Assembly (NCBI GenBank): GCA_944382715.1
Contig: CALWNC010000001.1
Span: 224,104 to 288,103, forward strand
Length of the DNA stretch: 64,000 bases
Direction of reading: 5' to 3'
Source of the DNA: an uncultured Clostridia bacterium
GTDB lineage: Bacteria; Bacillota; Clostridia; Christensenellales; UBA1242
Part shown: positions 6,132-11,969 of the stretch, one piece after another
Position numbering within the stretch: position 1 is the stretch's first letter
Layout: every line of letters begins with the position of its first letter
Notes under the pieces: model-generated
Database searches by the model: none
What the model was told of the DNA's origin: nothing
Seen by the model: the letters and a program-made list of their open reading frames with translations, nothing else
Position numbers and translations under genes: made by a program

Positions 6132-7031
6132 ATGAAAAATAATAAAATTAAAAGAACTTTTGTTGTACTTGGAGCCGTAGCAACACTTGCAGGGCTTGCT
6201 GGGTGTGCAAATGATACTAGTTTGGAAAGAGCAGGTTATTTGTCAGACAATCTTACACAGATTTGTAACGAACAGCTGTCAGACTCTAGAGCCGACTACT
6301 CAGTGAATAACTTTGAAATTATAGGTGCAGATGTCGACAAATCTTCTTTTGACTTTGATGTTAATTTTAATGGTGTTGCATCGCTTTCAAATGATAGTGT
6401 TGCCTACACTTCTATTGTTTATGAAGTTCCTTCCACCTATTTTGATGGACTTTCAAAAAGAAGCAAATCTGATAGTGTGTACGATGTTTTTGACAGAGTT
6501 ATTAGTGAACTTGATCCAATTTCAGTTAACATTTCCCCAGTGTCAAGTTTATCTACAATTAACAATGCATTTATTAAAAATGAACCTTCTGCTTTTGAAA
6601 AGTACAATATTGTTGATGGATTGCTTTATAATTTGGGAATTCCTGAATTTAATGACGAAGAAAAATCAGTGAATTTTGATACTAAAACACTCGTTGAACT
6701 TAAAAGTAGCAAACTTGAGCCAGGATTTGGTCTTGGCATTGGCTTTAATGGAGGAGTTGGTCTTGGTGTTGGAATTTTTAAAGTTTCAAAACAGGGAACT
6801 TTCACAATTGGTGACAATTATAGTTTTGTTGTTGATGAAAATACATATAATGCAATGAAAAATGACATTTCACTGGTCTATGATTACTGTGCAAGTGCAA
6901 TAAATGAAAAGGATAATGGCAAAATCTCTGCTGAGAGAAAGTCTGTTACAAGCGTGACTTATGATAACGCCGACCTTTTAAATAATCTTGACATTAATGG
7001 ATTGGAAAATAGTGTTTTAAATAAAGAATAG
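6132..7031 (+). CDS. lipoprotein (paralog 1)
   Basis: Signal peptide with lipobox LAGLAG-C. Shares F.I.GADV.KSS.D...NGV...YT...YEV.S.YF with the next gene. Confidence 0.7.
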   Translation: MKNNKIKRTFVVLGAVATLAGLAGCANDTSLERAGYLSDNLTQICNEQLSDSRADYSVNNFEIIGADVDKSSFDFDVNFNGVASLSNDSVAYTSIVYEVPSTYFDGLSKRSKSDSVYDVFDRVISELDPISVNISPVSSLSTINNAFIKNEPSAFEKYNIVDGLLYNLGIPEFNDEEKSVNFDTKTLVELKSSKLEPGFGLGIGFNGGVGLGVGIFKVSKQGTFTIGDNYSFVVDENTYNAMKNDISLVYDYCASAINEKDNGKISAERKSVTSVTYDNADLLNNLDINGLENSVLNKE

Positions 7032-7040
7032 GAGCAAATT

Positions 7041-7934
7041 ATGATAAAATCAAAAAAAGTTAAAAGAGCAATTCAAGTACTTGGTCTTTCTGCAACCATT
7101 TTTGCAGGTGCACTTACTCTTGCTGGTTGCGCACCATCAGAACTTGAACTCGCACAACAAAATATTGACACAACTGTTACGGAAGTTTTGAATGATGAAA
7201 ACATTCAAAGTGAAATTAATAATCCTATTGAAAACTTTACTTTTCTATGTGCAGATGTTGAAAAGAGTTCAAACGACAATTATAACATTGACATTAATGG
7301 TGTTTCTAATTACACAAATAATGATAAAAAAGGATATACGACACTCTCCTATGAGGTTGATAGTTCTTACTTTAATGCCGATTCAACAAAAAATACTGCC
7401 ACTTTGATTAACACAATGTCTGACATTGTTACTAATGAAAAATACAACGCTTATTCAATCATTGATGTAAACGACTTGTCTAGTTTAAATACGGCAATAG
7501 GAACAAATACCAATATTCCCCTTGATGGATTTAAATATAAAAATAATTTTGTCTACAAGGTTGGAAATGTCCAGCTTTCTGAAAATGATAATGTTGCATC
7601 ATTTTCAGCAAGTGAACTTACTAAATTTTATAAAACTACCAAACAGGTTACTTATGGTATTGTTGGTTATTATGATGGCAAACCAAGATATGGACTTGTA
7701 ACAAGAACCCACACAGACTATGAATCATTCTTCTTTGACCACAATATTTATGTTCAACTTTCACCAGAAGAATTTGAGCAAGCAAAAACTGACGAATCAA
7801 TAATTTTTGACAAATTTGTTGAATATGTTAATAGTAATCAAACTGACAAGTATGTTGTTCAAGAAACAAATATTGCAAAAGATAAGGAGTTTAATGCCAA
7901 TATGAAAGGTAATGTTCAACTCGGCGATATTTAA
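7041..7934 (+). CDS. lipoprotein (paralog 2)
   Basis: Signal peptide with lipobox TLAG-C. Similar length and conserved N-terminal region to 6132..7031. Confidence 0.7.
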   Translation: MIKSKKVKRAIQVLGLSATIFAGALTLAGCAPSELELAQQNIDTTVTEVLNDENIQSEINNPIENFTFLCADVEKSSNDNYNIDINGVSNYTNNDKKGYTTLSYEVDSSYFNADSTKNTATLINTMSDIVTNEKYNAYSIIDVNDLSSLNTAIGTNTNIPLDGFKYKNNFVYKVGNVQLSENDNVASFSASELTKFYKTTKQVTYGIVGYYDGKPRYGLVTRTHTDYESFFFDHNIYVQLSPEEFEQAKTDESIIFDKFVEYVNSNQTDKYVVQETNIAKDKEFNANMKGNVQLGDI

Positions 7935-7979
7935 AATTTAATTATAATTTTACTTTAAATTAATTTATCTTTTTAGTTA

Positions 7980-8011
7980 AAATCTAATAATTTGTTATTA
8001 GATTTTTTTAT
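7980..8011 (+). terminator. intrinsic terminator
   Basis: AAATCTAATAA tttg TTATTAGATTT followed by a T-run. Confidence 0.7.
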
Positions 8012-8195
8012 GTCAAAAAAATATCAAGCTGTATTTTAATGTTAATCTTATAGCAAATTATTAAAATTTTTATTACTGCAGAATATTTAATTTATTTATT
8101 TTTAGTTAAAAAGTTTATTTGTTAATTTTTTAAACTCACCATAACTTAGACTTTTAACATTATAAAAAAATAAATAAAATTTCTAAAAAAAAATA

Positions 8196-8223
8196 TTGAC
8201 ACAAATAAAATTGGTGATATGAT
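8196..8223 (+). promoter_or_regulatory. promoter of tyrS leader
   Basis: TTGACA (8196-8201), 16-nt spacer, extended -10 TGaTATGAT (8215-8223). Confidence 0.55.
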
Positions 8224-8264
8224 TATTATTATAAGGTAAATAAACATTTTTTTGGAGAAATACT

Positions 8265-8315
8265 ATGATAGCTAATTTAATAGTAAGTGAATACTATTAC
8301 GACTACATATTTTAA
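8265..8315 (+). CDS. 16-aa Tyr-rich leader peptide MIANLIVSEYYYDYIF
   Basis: GGAGA RBS 6 nt upstream of the ATG. Four Tyr codons lie at 8292-8300 and 8304-8306. The stop at 8313-8315 sits inside the first attenuator hairpin. Confidence 0.6.
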   Translation: MIANLIVSEYYYDYIF

Positions 8316-8391
8316 TGGCTATATGTAGTGTTTTTGTTTGGGAAAAGAAAGATACAAAGTCATATAGCAAATATCTATATGACTTTTTTTA
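8302..8391 (+). promoter_or_regulatory. four-segment transcription attenuator (1:2, 2:3, 3:4 + U-tract) upstream of tyrS
   Basis: Segment 1 ACTACATAT (8302-8310) pairs with segment 2 ATATGTAGT (8321-8329). Segment 2' GCTATATG (8318-8325) pairs with CATATAGC (8361-8368). Terminator stem is AGTCATATAG (8358-8367) / CTATATGACT (8375-8384), followed by TTTTTTT. Confidence 0.6.
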
Positions 8392-8475
8392 TTTTTATGT
8401 TAAATATGCTTTATTTACCATTAAAATTTTGGTAAAATCAAAAAATGTAATGAATTACCTTTAAAGGAGAAATTT

Positions 8476-9720
8476 ATGGCGACTAACACAAATTTATACA
8501 ACATATTAAAAGAGAGAGGTTTATTATATCAATGCACAGACGAAGACGCACTTAAGGCAATGCTTGAAAGTGGCAAGCCTATAACTGTCTATGAAGGAAG
8601 CGACCCTACTGCAGACAGTTTACACATTGGTCACTGCGTTCCATACTGCATTCTCAGAAGATTTCAAAAGGCAGGTCATAAAGTTATTGTTCTCATGGGT
8701 GGTGCAACTGCCTGCATTGGCGACCCATCTGGAAAAACTGAAATGCGAAAAATGCTCTCTAAGGCTGAAATTGAAAACAACATTGAAAAAATAAAAAATA
8801 CTCTAAAAGTATTTTTGGACTTTGATGGCGACAATCCTGCAATTATTGTAAATAATGCAGACTGGTTCAAAGACATTAACTACATTGACTTTATGCGTGA
8901 TATTGGGGTTCACTTTAATGTAAACAAAATGCTCTCTGCGGAAATTTACAAAAATCGTATAAACAATGGTGGCTTAACATTCTTTGAAATGGGATATCAA
9001 CTAATGCAGGCTTATGACTTTGTTCACTTAAACCGAGAATATGGTTGCACACTTCAATATGGTGGAGCTGACCAATGGGGTAACATTGCTGCAGGAAGTG
9101 AGCTTCAAAGAAAATTAAATTTTGTGAATGGCACAGACATAAATTTGGTTGGAGCAACAAACCCACTTTTACTAACCCCTGAAGGTAAGAAAATGGGTAA
9201 AACGGAAAAAGGTGCTATTTGGATTGACAAGGATAAAATTTCAGCATATGACTTTTATCAGGGAATTTATCAAACTCCAGATGCCTGTGTGAAAATGATG
9301 TTTTCACTTTTTACCGATATTGAAATGTGTGAAATTGATAAAATGATTGAAGAAGACATTGTCAAAGCCAAAAAGCGACTTTGCTATGAAATCACAAAGT
9401 TTGTACGCGGAGAAGAAGATGCTAAACTGGCATATCAAATGAGTGAAAATTTATTTACTGATGGTGGCAACGATGCCCCTACTTTTGAAATTGAAAAAAG
9501 TGAAATTGAAAATGGTAAAAGTATTTTAGAGCTTTTGGTAGAAACCAAACTTTGCCAAAGCAAAGGTGAAGCAAGAAAAATAATTGATGGTGGTGGAATT
9601 TCTGTTAACGGTGAAAAAATTAGTGATGTTAACTTAAAACTCACCGTTTCAGACTTTAAGGACAACAGCATATTACTTAAAAAAGGCAAAAAATCATTCA
9701 TTAAGGTTGTTTTATCTTAA
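8476..9720 (+). CDS. tyrS: tyrosine--tRNA ligase
   Basis: 414 aa. HIGH motif (SLHIGHCV), KMSKS variant (KMGKT), and C-terminal S4-like domain (GEARKIIDGGGISVNGEK). Confidence 0.93.
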   Translation: MATNTNLYNILKERGLLYQCTDEDALKAMLESGKPITVYEGSDPTADSLHIGHCVPYCILRRFQKAGHKVIVLMGGATACIGDPSGKTEMRKMLSKAEIENNIEKIKNTLKVFLDFDGDNPAIIVNNADWFKDINYIDFMRDIGVHFNVNKMLSAEIYKNRINNGGLTFFEMGYQLMQAYDFVHLNREYGCTLQYGGADQWGNIAAGSELQRKLNFVNGTDINLVGATNPLLLTPEGKKMGKTEKGAIWIDKDKISAYDFYQGIYQTPDACVKMMFSLFTDIEMCEIDKMIEEDIVKAKKRLCYEITKFVRGEEDAKLAYQMSENLFTDGGNDAPTFEIEKSEIENGKSILELLVETKLCQSKGEARKIIDGGGISVNGEKISDVNLKLTVSDFKDNSILLKKGKKSFIKVVLS

Positions 9721-9733
9721 ACAACCTTTTTTA
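9703..9733 (+). terminator. intrinsic terminator overlapping tyrS stop
   Basis: AAGGTTGTTT ... AAACAACCTT followed by TTTTT. Confidence 0.7.
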
Positions 9734-9850
9734 GTGCACTATTTTAAAAAAAATTTATCTTTTTACTTTTATAAAAAACTATTTATTTACTTTTAACAAT
9801 TTATTAAAAGACAATAATAAACAATATTCATATAATAACTGTGAGGTCAT

Positions 9851-10363
9851 ATGAAAATTAATCTGTACTTACTTGGAATAATTTCCATTATTGTTTTAAT
9901 AATTTTACCAATCTTAATTTTTGAAGCGACAAATCGAAATCAACTTCTTAGGAAAAAGCTTATGTTTATTTTTGCCGTTTTTTATTTTGTCCTACTTATT
10001 GCTGGCACAATTTGCAAGATTGATAATGATTATCCCTACTTAATATTCTCATTTGACTTTACTCAGCCTTGGTTTAAAATAAAATTTATGTTATTTAACT
10101 TTGGAATTTCAAATATATTAATAAATCTTGGAATGTTTATTCCACTTGGATACATTGTTGTTACTTTTTCACCTAAAAAATATTTTTTTAAAACTATTAT
10201 TTTGAGTTTTTTGCTCAGTATTATTATTGAACTTTATCAGTGGATTTTGCCTATAACAAGAGACAGTGAAATTGGTGACATTATTTTGAACAGCCTTAGT
10301 GGAGTAATGTCTGCCTGCTGGTGTAAAATTTTGGAGAAACTAAATGTTAAATTTATTTCTTAA
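9851..10363 (+). CDS. VanZ-like membrane protein
   Basis: 170 aa with 4-5 TM segments. The C-terminal RDSEIGDIILNSLSGV resembles the VanZ-family signature. Confidence 0.45.
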   Translation: MKINLYLLGIISIIVLIILPILIFEATNRNQLLRKKLMFIFAVFYFVLLIAGTICKIDNDYPYLIFSFDFTQPWFKIKFMLFNFGISNILINLGMFIPLGYIVVTFSPKKYFFKTIILSFLLSIIIELYQWILPITRDSEIGDIILNSLSGVMSACWCKILEKLNVKFIS

Positions 10364-10619
10364 AATGTATCATTTTATCTATATTCTCAATTTGGGCTAT
10401 GATTAATTCAATAAAAATTAAATTGTCAAAAATAAAAACAATAATAATTATGAATAATATTTAAATTTGAGTTTAATTGTAAAAAAGTCATTAATTTAAA
10501 AAAATTATACAAAAAAAAGACATTTATAAAGCAAATATTAATTGTTTTATTAATGTCTTTTTTAAGTTTGTATCAATAAATTCTATCCAATCAAATTTTT
10601 TCACTTTCAAAAAAATTTA

Positions 10620-11969
10620 TTAATCTTCTGCTTCGCTTTCTTCTCTACTAACTGTCAAATTAAGTTTTTGAATTCTATCATCGTCAAAATTTACTACTTC
10701 AAATGTTAAATATGTCGTAATTGTTATATAATTACTATTTTCATCAAGAATATCGTCCTTTGCAGTAATCTTTACAACTGTGCCCTTTTTTGGCATCGTT
10801 TCAGAAAGCTCATAAATCATACCACCAACTGATGAATACTTTGTTTCTGGAAGGTGTTCAATTCCAAGATAATCAAACAAATCTTCAATTGAAATATCTG
10901 GGTCAACACTATATTTATTCTCTTCAAGTTTTTGGATAGGTGCATCTTCTGCTTCATCATGCTCGTCATATATCTCGCCAAGCATAAGTTCAAGTGCATC
11001 TTCAAGGGTAACAATTCCACTAGTTCCACCATATTCATCAACCACTATTGCCATATGCTTTTTTTCTTTCTGCATAATTTTTATTAGATCGTCGACTTTC
11101 ATAGTTTCAGTAACCTTGAGAGGTTCAGACAAGAGATTTTCAAGTTTAAAATCATTACCATTATAATTTAAAGCAAAGAAATCTTTATAGTTTAGTATGC
11201 CAATAATATTATCTTTGTCGCCATCATAAATAGGTATTCTTGAATAATGATACGAAGTGAACGCCTGTTTGATTTCATCTAAACTAGAATCAAGTGCTAG
11301 TGCAAGCATATCAACCCTTGGAACTAAAATATCATAAACCGTCTTTTCACTTAAATCTAATGCCCCATGAATTATGTCTGCATTCTCACTATCTATTGTA
11401 CCTTGATTTTCCATAGTGTCTACAATAGTTTCAAATTCATTTTCAGTTATTCTAGCTTCTTCCTTATTTTTCACAAATAGCCCTTGGAATTTATAGAAAG
11501 GCCAAGCTATAATATAGAGAATTTTCATACAAACATAGAGTCCCCCACCAAATTTTAAGACAAATTTTTCAGGATTACTCTTCGCATAACTTTTTGGTAA
11601 AATTTCACCAAAAATGAGAATTACAATTGTCATTACTACTGTGTTAACTAGGTTTGAAATAGTTGGATTTATTATAAATTTTGAGAAAAAATAAGCACAA
11701 ATTGTTGTATTTGCTATGTTTACTAAGTTGTTGCCAACTAAAACGCAAACGAGTGCAAAATCGTAGTGATCACAAATGTATTGGGCTTTTCTTGCACCTT
11801 TTGCATTTTCATCGGCAAGAGATTTAATCCTCATTGTGTTAACTGATGAAAATGCCATTTCATTTGCTGATAAAAATGCTGAAACAACTAGCAAAAGAAC
11901 AATTCCTAGTATTGAAAGACCATCAGCCATTGTAAATTTTGTAGATAATAAAAACCGCTCGAGATACAT
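10620..11969 (-). CDS. CNNM/HlyC/CorC-family transporter (DUF21 + CBS pair + CorC_HlyC)
   Basis: 449 aa. N-terminal 4-TM domain, central CBS-like region, and C-terminal transporter-associated domain (YSSVGGMIYELSETMPKKG). Confidence 0.75.
   Translation of the reverse strand: MYLERFLLSTKFTMADGLSILGIVLLLVVSAFLSANEMAFSSVNTMRIKSLADENAKGARKAQYICDHYDFALVCVLVGNNLVNIANTTICAYFFSKFIINPTISNLVNTVVMTIVILIFGEILPKSYAKSNPEKFVLKFGGGLYVCMKILYIIAWPFYKFQGLFVKNKEEARITENEFETIVDTMENQGTIDSENADIIHGALDLSEKTVYDILVPRVDMLALALDSSLDEIKQAFTSYHYSRIPIYDGDKDNIIGILNYKDFFALNYNGNDFKLENLLSEPLKVTETMKVDDLIKIMQKEKKHMAIVVDEYGGTSGIVTLEDALELMLGEIYDEHDEAEDAPIQKLEENKYSVDPDISIEDLFDYLGIEHLPETKYSSVGGMIYELSETMPKKGTVVKITAKDDILDENSNYITITTYLTFEVVNFDDDRIQKLNLTVSREESEAED

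Follow-up and report, generated by a model that had tools for sequence, protein, structure and literature searches.

A tyrosine-codon leader and predicted transcription attenuator upstream of tyrS in an uncultured lineage of gut Clostridia

What controls tyrS in a Gram-positive lineage when the gene carries no T-box? The tyrS gene of Bacillus subtilis is the founding T-box example, and Gram-positive tyrS is the textbook T-box gene. The stretch of DNA analysed here (the window, 64,000 nucleotides (nt) of contig CALWNC010000001.1 from an uncultured Clostridia bacterium) contains a tyrS gene at 8476–9720 on the forward strand, coding for a tyrosine--tRNA ligase of 414 amino acids (TIGR00234, E = 5e-118; 394.7 bits, the cutoff being 113.8), and it is the only tyrS found in this genome. 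The leader of this gene, beginning with a promoter at 8196, is very probably a ribosome-mediated transcription attenuator that makes expression of tyrS depend on how much charged tRNA-Tyr is available. The evidence comes from the anatomy of the leader, from a small open reading frame (ORF) that is conserved together with its Tyr codons, from three helices that covary, from the agreement between codons and downstream gene in paralogous leaders, and from the absence of a T-box. Translation of the ORF, ribosome stalling, a pause site, kinetic control and a response in vivo are what we infer from these observations.

The tyrS leader and its alternative pairings

A sequence-only reading of the window had proposed a trpL-like attenuator at tyrS and had seen no T-box there. 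The latter point was borne out by Infernal cmscan of positions 7000–11000 against all 4227 Rfam families, in which no T-box (RF00230) match was returned at E ≤ 10, and neither a conserved T-box sequence nor a specifier loop is present at the tyrS leader. Matches to the catalogued Rfam leaders (Trp, His, Leu, Thr, Phe and Lactococcus leu/phe) were likewise absent from 7000–11000 at this threshold, and none was found at the loci of relatives. The RF00230 model detects four T-boxes elsewhere in the same genome (glyQS, pheS, ileS and thrS), and twelve full-length T-boxes occur upstream of tyrS in relatives or sister lineages (E = 1e-9 to 5e-18, with a TAC specifier context), so the result is not a failure of sensitivity.

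The promoter, the GGAGA site, the 16-codon Tyr-rich ORF and the three mutually exclusive helices of the earlier proposal were all found where it had placed them. The promoter (8196–8223, forward strand) is of the sigma-70 type with an extended -10, and consists of TTGACA (8196–8201), a 16-nt spacer, TG (8215–8216) and TATGAT (8218–8223); a promoter scan gave 11 of 12 consensus matches plus the extended -10 TG, and congeners keep both TTGACA and the -10 region. Sequence reading places a Shine-Dalgarno GGAGA (8254–8258) 6 nt upstream of the ATG of the leader ORF (8265–8315), which begins at 8265, has 16 codons followed by a TAA stop (8313–8315), and encodes MIANLIVSEYYYDYIF. Near its end is the series TAC TAT TAC (GAC) TAC (8292–8306), in which four of five codons specify Tyr (8292–8300 and 8304–8306), and these are the proposed stall sites.

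Segment 1 (ACTACATAT, 8302–8310) shares nucleotides with the final Tyr codon and with the Ile codon; its pairing with positions 8321–8329 of segment 2 (GCTATATGTAGT, 8318–8329) gives helix 1:2, of 9 base pairs (bp) and -8.5 kcal/mol. Directly 3' of this helix is a U-tract (8331–8335, consensus GTTTTTGTG) that occupies nearly invariant alignment columns and is a putative pause site. Positions 8318–8325 of segment 2 can also pair with 8361–8368 of segment 3 (AAAGTCATATAGC, 8356–8368), giving helix 2:3, the antiterminator, which encloses an inner hairpin of unconserved sequence (8328–8355). In helix 3:4, positions 8358–8367 pair with 8375–8384 of segment 4 (CTATATGACTTT, 8375–8390 together with its T-run), and the pairing can be extended to 12 bp (8356–8367 with 8375–8386). 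The resulting intrinsic terminator has a 12-bp stem, a 7-nt loop and a T-rich tail, and its hairpin (8356–8386) is the sole terminator-like site within 7900–8520, where shuffles expect 0.0. The sequence-only reading had given this terminator seven U after segment 4; a T-run is indeed there, but six T follow segment 4 as it was delimited, and the uninterrupted seven (8384–8390) are reached only by counting the last stem base, after which come an A and five more T. The T-run ends 85 nt upstream of tyrS, the Shine-Dalgarno of which is read as AAAGGAG (8463–8469).

Folding with masks reproduced the predicted effect of ribosome position. With segment 1 masked and segment 4 untranscribed, the minimum-energy fold is helix 2:3 enclosing the inner hairpin (-17.2 kcal/mol). 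A ribosome placed at the stop codon covers segment 2 and rules out 2:3, and 3:4 forms; the fully terminated state has an energy of -24.4 kcal/mol. In the proposed mechanism, transcription would start at the promoter (8196–8223), and a ribosome would load at GGAGA and translate the 16-codon ORF behind the polymerase, which probably pauses at the conserved U-tract 3' of hairpin 1:2. By analogy with the 1:2 pause of the trp leader, such a pause of RNA polymerase at 8331–8335 may synchronise transcription with translation of the leader. When Tyr-tRNA is plentiful, the ribosome would reach the stop at 8313 and cover segment 2, segments 3 and 4 would pair, and transcription would terminate at the T-run (8384–8390). 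When Tyr-tRNA is scarce, a ribosome stalled on the Tyr codons (8292–8306) would cover segment 1 and leave segment 2 exposed; helix 2:3 would then form as segment 3 emerges, the terminator would be blocked, and the polymerase would enter tyrS.

The fold of the whole leader has a z-score of -3.96, and 0 of 200 shuffles were as stable. The whole 1.6-Mb genome was scanned for a Shine-Dalgarno sequence followed by a short ORF, a run of the same residue and a terminator, and the tyrS leader was the only hit with four of five identical residues; Tyr accounts for 4.7% of codons genome-wide. No other leader-peptide attenuator was seen in this genome, the pattern scan giving otherwise only Ile/Lys-rich noise and the covariance model of the leader (see below) finding one copy.

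Conservation and covariation among relatives

The bacterium is a member of a large family of uncultured Clostridia of the gut, whose genomes measure 0.8–1.6 Mb and are known only as metagenome assemblies (from the gut of human, deer, rabbit, mouse and chicken). Of the 19 congeners for which tyrS was available, 14 have a small ORF with a Shine-Dalgarno sequence at the equivalent place, encoding peptides such as MKNFKFAVSYYYYYI, MKTLNFAASYYYCYI and MKIVNFSVSYYYYCI. When the leaders of these congeners were made into a covariance model, it matched 14 of 21 genomes of the genus and 13 of the 58 sampled genera of the family, and had no match among some 380 further genomes from the order. In the other genera, where tyrS is only ~49% identical, the leader is more regular, with 15 codons ending SYYYYYI.

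All 23 tyrS-linked leaders examined have a Shine-Dalgarno-like sequence, an ATG and an ORF of 15–17 codons; their 3–5 Tyr codons form a run whose start lies 5–7 codons ahead of the stop, with segment 2 following 1–6 nt after the stop. The Tyr codons vary only synonymously (45 TAT, 59 TAC). Between species, nucleotide identity is 57% over codons 2–9 and 87% in the part that holds the Tyr codons and segment 1. The frame is always open, for which the chance in shuffled sequences is about 0.45 each, with a product of ~1e-4 over 12 sequences. A fixed length and fixed sensor codons combined with a free N-terminus correspond to the pattern that a translated sensor ORF would be predicted to leave, and one that would not be expected of a functional peptide or an untranslated RNA.

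Among the leader Tyr codons, TAC has a share of 57% (three of four in the window), compared with 21% in the long ORFs of the genome, which has a single tRNA-Tyr(GTA). The pairing of segment 1 accounts for part of this bias.

Pairing was examined in an alignment of 14 sequences from the genus and in another of 28 distinct sequences from 13 genera of the family; the model behind the latter encoded helices 1:2 and 3:4 alone, and the family alignment is thus not biased in favour of 2:3. Helix 2:3 is paired in 92.8% of cells in the genus alignment and 93.1% in the family alignment. Eight of its 13 pairs have changed on both sides in the genus, and its covariation score was reached by 0 of 500 shuffles, a count that is not a probability because the sequences are related. 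The corresponding values are 97.6% and 94.8% for helix 1:2, which also shows compensatory changes across relatives, and 94.6% and 96.7% for helix 3:4. As a control, the partner strand was slid by 1–3 columns, which gave pairing of 5–67% in the genus and 10–53% in the family. Most telling is one species where TTGGTGTG stands in segment 2 in place of GCTATATG, and CACACCAA in segment 3 in place of CATATAGC. The alignments thus agree with the earlier proposal, which had looked to relatives for retention of the small ORF, the Tyr codons and all three pairings with compensatory changes. Such changes on both sides of all three mutually exclusive helices are difficult to account for without a switch.

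Variant terminator layouts were observed in several relatives (loci L128, L134 and L139 of genomes G002, G019 and G003, and loci L130, L136, L127, L126 and L092). In some there is no T-run past 3:4, and a further hairpin bears the T-run and has a 5' arm complementary to segment 4, making a six-segment relay. Others have tandem terminators, the second of which is likewise complementary to segment 4.

Many relatives carry an additional module past the terminator(s). Of 22 tyrS-linked leaders, 16 have one TAY codon immediately next to a GCCC...GGGC hairpin; in 14 of those 16 the codon belongs to the reading frame of a second small ORF, which has a Shine-Dalgarno of its own (MIKSLLVTKTYALLGQVC and MILFIKTYALMGVKTI are examples; peptides such as ...KTYALLG... 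are found at loci L125:1590-1720, L142, L143, L144 and others). A His-type paralogue, described below, has CAT at the TAY position, giving KTHAHQG, and Trp leaders have a TGG close to the end of the second ORF. A candidate second constitutive promoter past the terminator of relatives, TTGGAG...TATGATAAAAT, was rejected, as it is actually the Shine-Dalgarno and ATG of this second small ORF. In the window (row L137), the spacer that separates the terminator from the ribosome-binding site of tyrS (8392–8462) contains neither the second small ORF nor the GC hairpin. The module has apparently been lost here through a small deletion, of which TTTTGG/TAAAATC at 8427–8439 may be the remnant, the deletion having extended across the Shine-Dalgarno and ATG of the second ORF. 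With both the ORF and the hairpin missing, the switch in the window would therefore be a simple four-segment attenuator.

Codon identity, rival explanations and origin

A search for segments 2, 3 and 4 without the ORF, in 401 genomes of the family, retrieved the scaffold from 34 genomes, against 2 for a reversed-pattern control; the pattern matches 14 of the 58 sampled genera. Every copy upstream of tyrS (over 35 genomes) has 3–5 Tyr codons, and Tyr runs were found only upstream of tyrS. Copies preceding trpS (TIGR00233, 5e-75; L163, L164 and L165 in genus g30) have the leaders MTININKNLNYWWNI, MKKGLNKSTKSWYCI and MKNKFNKNAKYWHCI, which end ...NYWWNI, ...KSWYCI and ...KYWHCI, and a copy preceding ileS (TIGR00392, 7e-111; L161, genome G754) has the Ile-rich leader MKTINANIIINIIIA. 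In three genomes (L141:1420-2650 of G003, L140 of G009 and L151/L153 of G047), His leaders including MKNVIMLTKYHHTHI and MLKNFNSTSYHFSHIV, with the ends ...KYHHTHI and ...SYHFSHIV, lie upstream of a radical-SAM/SPASM-like gene. One further copy, on the reverse strand of genome G226 (L152:1380-1900), precedes an ABC-F ATPase gene; its 19-codon leader MSYFDKILRHDIPAYRCYM has no amino-acid run, and the stop lies inside segment 2. The scaffold itself needs no Tyr codons, and codon identity tracks the downstream gene, which is the strongest argument for amino-acid-specific sensing by a ribosome, and against direct sensing by the RNA or sensing of general stress. Such a series of codon swaps on one scaffold resembles a natural mutagenesis experiment, and it also provides compact (~130 nt), reprogrammable amino-acid sensors that could be put to further use.

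The radical-SAM/SPASM-like enzyme that follows the His leaders has 290 amino acids, and gave weak matches to PqqE, NirJ and a mycofactocin maturase, far below the cutoffs. The ileS gene in the window's genome is T-box controlled, unlike that of the relative with the Ile leader. Duplication of the leader together with its upstream gene was considered and rejected, since the gene that precedes the leader in the window bears no relation to the one that precedes the His-type paralogue. The two forward-strand genes preceding the leader in the window (6132–7031 and 7041–7934) are tandem paralogues (26% identity, E = 2e-20), and their products have lipoprotein-like N-termini (...LAGCA) and no Pfam or NCBIfam match. 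By sequence reading, the transcription unit ending with gene 7041–7934 is closed by a terminator-like hairpin and T-run (7979–8010, forward strand), a region that also lies in the alignment of a weak SpF36 match and was left unlisted by the terminator scan because it has too few G-C pairs. Since this hairpin ends the upstream unit, the tyrS leader is a separate transcription unit.

Several observations weigh against a Tyr-responsive attenuator in the window. At equilibrium, the terminator beats the antiterminator even when segment 1 is masked (-20.3 versus -17.2 kcal/mol). As the terminator is favoured once segment 4 exists, the outcome would be set kinetically, as in trpL, and read-through must, according to the folding model, depend on co-transcriptional kinetics. 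The window's copy is the most diverged in the genus: an Asp codon breaks its Tyr run, it has one extra codon and a 1:2 loop of 10 nt, and its model score (75.6 bits) is the second lowest in the genus. Five congeners have neither the leader nor a T-box, so control of this kind is dispensable, and the relatedness of the aligned sequences limits the shuffle counts in the way already stated. The divergence of this copy, the loss of the second small ORF and hairpin, and the complete loss of the leader from five congeners would also suit a relic in decay, with constitutive termination or read-through. We consider this highly improbable, given that the promoter, Shine-Dalgarno, frame, four Tyr codons, three helices and T-run are intact, and that, with no other tyrS found in the genome, a terminator always active at this place would do harm unless it could be bypassed. 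An equally slight probability attaches to the view that the small ORF encodes a functional peptide, such as a toxin, a signal or the precursor of a ribosomally made, post-translationally modified peptide (RiPP), with hairpins that are no more than ordinary terminators. In its favour are the strong conservation of the C-terminal motif SYYYY(C/Y)I and a related leader upstream of a radical-SAM/SPASM-type enzyme, a class that often matures peptides, but the conserved C-terminal codons coincide with RNA segment 1, so that their conservation is explained at the RNA level. The remainder of the peptide is unconserved, and 15 residues leave very little room for a RiPP precursor that includes a recognition leader. 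Over 35 genomes have tyrS, and not a modification enzyme, as the downstream gene, and the antiterminator covaries with both flanks.

The other two alternatives concern what is sensed, and both are very unlikely. ABC-F resistance genes are controlled by ribosome stalling on leader ORFs, and the single scaffold copy upstream of an ABC-F ATPase, with a leader that lacks an amino-acid run, could point to an attenuator responding to general translation stress or antibiotics (compare ermC and the ABC-F resistance leaders) instead of to Tyr. Such an unspecific sensor is difficult to reconcile with the 3–5 Tyr codons kept by the tyrS copies in over 35 genomes, and with the Trp, Ile and His codons of the trpS, ileS and radical-SAM copies. 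Alternatively, the RNA might directly sense tRNA-Tyr or a metabolite, as T-boxes and riboswitches do, with the ORF being incidental and the Tyr triplets forming a specifier that pairs with the anticodon. The tyrS genes of sister lineages are under tRNA-binding control, and the leader has a weak full-length resemblance to the orphan trpB motif (RF04312), a riboswitch candidate (PMC11109978). The lack of a T-box match at E ≤ 10 argues against direct sensing, as does a trpB score far below the cutoff with equally weak matches genome-wide, and there is no conserved core resembling a ligand pocket. Helix 2:3 is also without the UGGN bulge that reads the tRNA 3' end in T-boxes, and conservation falls instead on the Shine-Dalgarno, the ATG, a frame of fixed length in which the N-terminal part drifts, a series of several Tyr codons and not just one, and a fixed distance between the stop and segment 2. 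Ribosome-mediated, Tyr-specific attenuation is the reading that we retain.

The origin of the leader was approached through a maximum-likelihood phylogeny of 82 TyrRS sequences, each marked with its upstream element. The window's genus forms a clade of 14 leader-bearing and 5 bare tyrS (support 99), nested in a 48-member clade (support 100) that otherwise consists mostly of T-box tyrS; the nearest sister branches have T-boxes. A second and distant TyrRS clade, from other genera, has the leader in 9 of 9 members. These well-supported branches force at least two changes of state. Clear homology between the leader RNAs of both clades means that the cassette or else the gene has moved. Because the genus is nested among T-box tyrS, the leader has replaced a Tyr T-box at its base, and several congeners lost the leader later.

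The T-boxes of the relatives were missed at the gathering threshold and recovered by using an E-value threshold together with a motif regular expression. Full-length Tyr T-boxes of these AT-rich genomes (loci L053-L079) score 56–89 bits, below the Rfam gathering score of 93 bits, and two of the four T-boxes in the window's genome also fall under it (73 and 69 bits). The cutoff therefore misses real T-boxes in such genomes. Genome annotation misses small ORFs of the kind described here.

A wider interpretation is quite possible, although we would not yet favour it: that the tyrS leader is one instance of a modular, laterally exchangeable cassette, reprogrammed by the codons of its mini-ORF; that it displaced the Tyr T-box in the window's genus by transfer between TyrRS lineages that are ~49% identical; and that the second ORF and hairpin form a second tier of sensing, which has been lost here. 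If so, a single expression platform (segments 1–4, sometimes elaborated into a six-segment relay or tandem terminators) would serve Tyr, Trp, Ile and His targets through exchange of the ORF, as well as targets of the ABC-F type, where the ATPase gene has yet another ORF.

Comparison with known leaders, T-boxes and riboswitch candidates

The pheM-pheST system of E. coli shares with the window's leader a four-segment leader-peptide attenuator at a synthetase gene, with codons for the amino acid of the enzyme itself, but it is specific for Phe and not Tyr, belongs to Proteobacteria and not Clostridia, and has no detectable sequence relation to the leader (Rfam, E ≤ 10). The geometry is also that of trpL, hisL, pheL, leuL, thrL and ilvL, in which the end of the ORF lies over segment 1 and the stop just upstream of segment 2. 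These classical leaders have the same 2:3 antiterminator and 3:4 terminator with U-run, the terminator being thermodynamically favoured and the choice kinetic. They differ in their targets, which are biosynthetic operons, mostly of Proteobacteria and Actinobacteria, and we know of none with tyrosine specificity. Literature searches found no Tyr-codon leader and no leader peptide of any kind at tyrS, and Rfam 15 contains no matching family.

With the tyrS T-box (RF00230), the leader shares its gene, its presumed signal (uncharged tRNA-Tyr) and its output, a choice between terminator and antiterminator. The T-box differs in binding the tRNA directly and in needing no translation, and its features are lacking at the leader described here. 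The lineage keeps T-boxes for other synthetases, and its nearest relatives keep one at tyrS, so that one RNA sensing mechanism would have been replaced by another for the same gene and signal at close phylogenetic range.

Predictions of a related kind have been made before. Naville and Gautheret (2010) predicted His leader peptides at the hisS paralogues (hisZ, hisS*) of bacilli, "replacing T-boxes" (PMC2965389). These are a precedent for a leader peptide at a synthetase-family gene of Firmicutes where a T-box is usual, and differ in their specificity for His, in being from Bacilli, and in belonging to paralogues, whereas the gene in the window is apparently the sole TyrRS gene of its cell. 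Attenuators have also been predicted for trpS and leuS of Streptomyces (PMC1262725).

The trpB motif (RF04312) was put forward as a riboswitch candidate by Narunsky et al. (2024), who conceded that it could be a classical attenuator; it occurs in Firmicutes and Fusobacteria, upstream of amino-acid-related genes (PMC11109978). Its layout, a hairpin with a 3' shoulder that can compete with the following intrinsic terminator, is shared by the tyrS leader, and a weak full-length match at window positions 8302–8394 (28.2 bits against a gathering score of 59, E = 0.55) is the only hit around this leader. Genome-wide there are 18 matches at E ≤ 10 (17–30 bits), none of them above the cutoff. Membership in this family was rejected on account of a score half the cutoff, the scattered matches of similar strength and a differing consensus, and the resemblance is one of architecture only. 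The Tyr-specific leader-peptide attenuator predicted at tyrS would accordingly be a new and so far uncatalogued member of a classical mechanism, that known from trpL and pheM-pheST.

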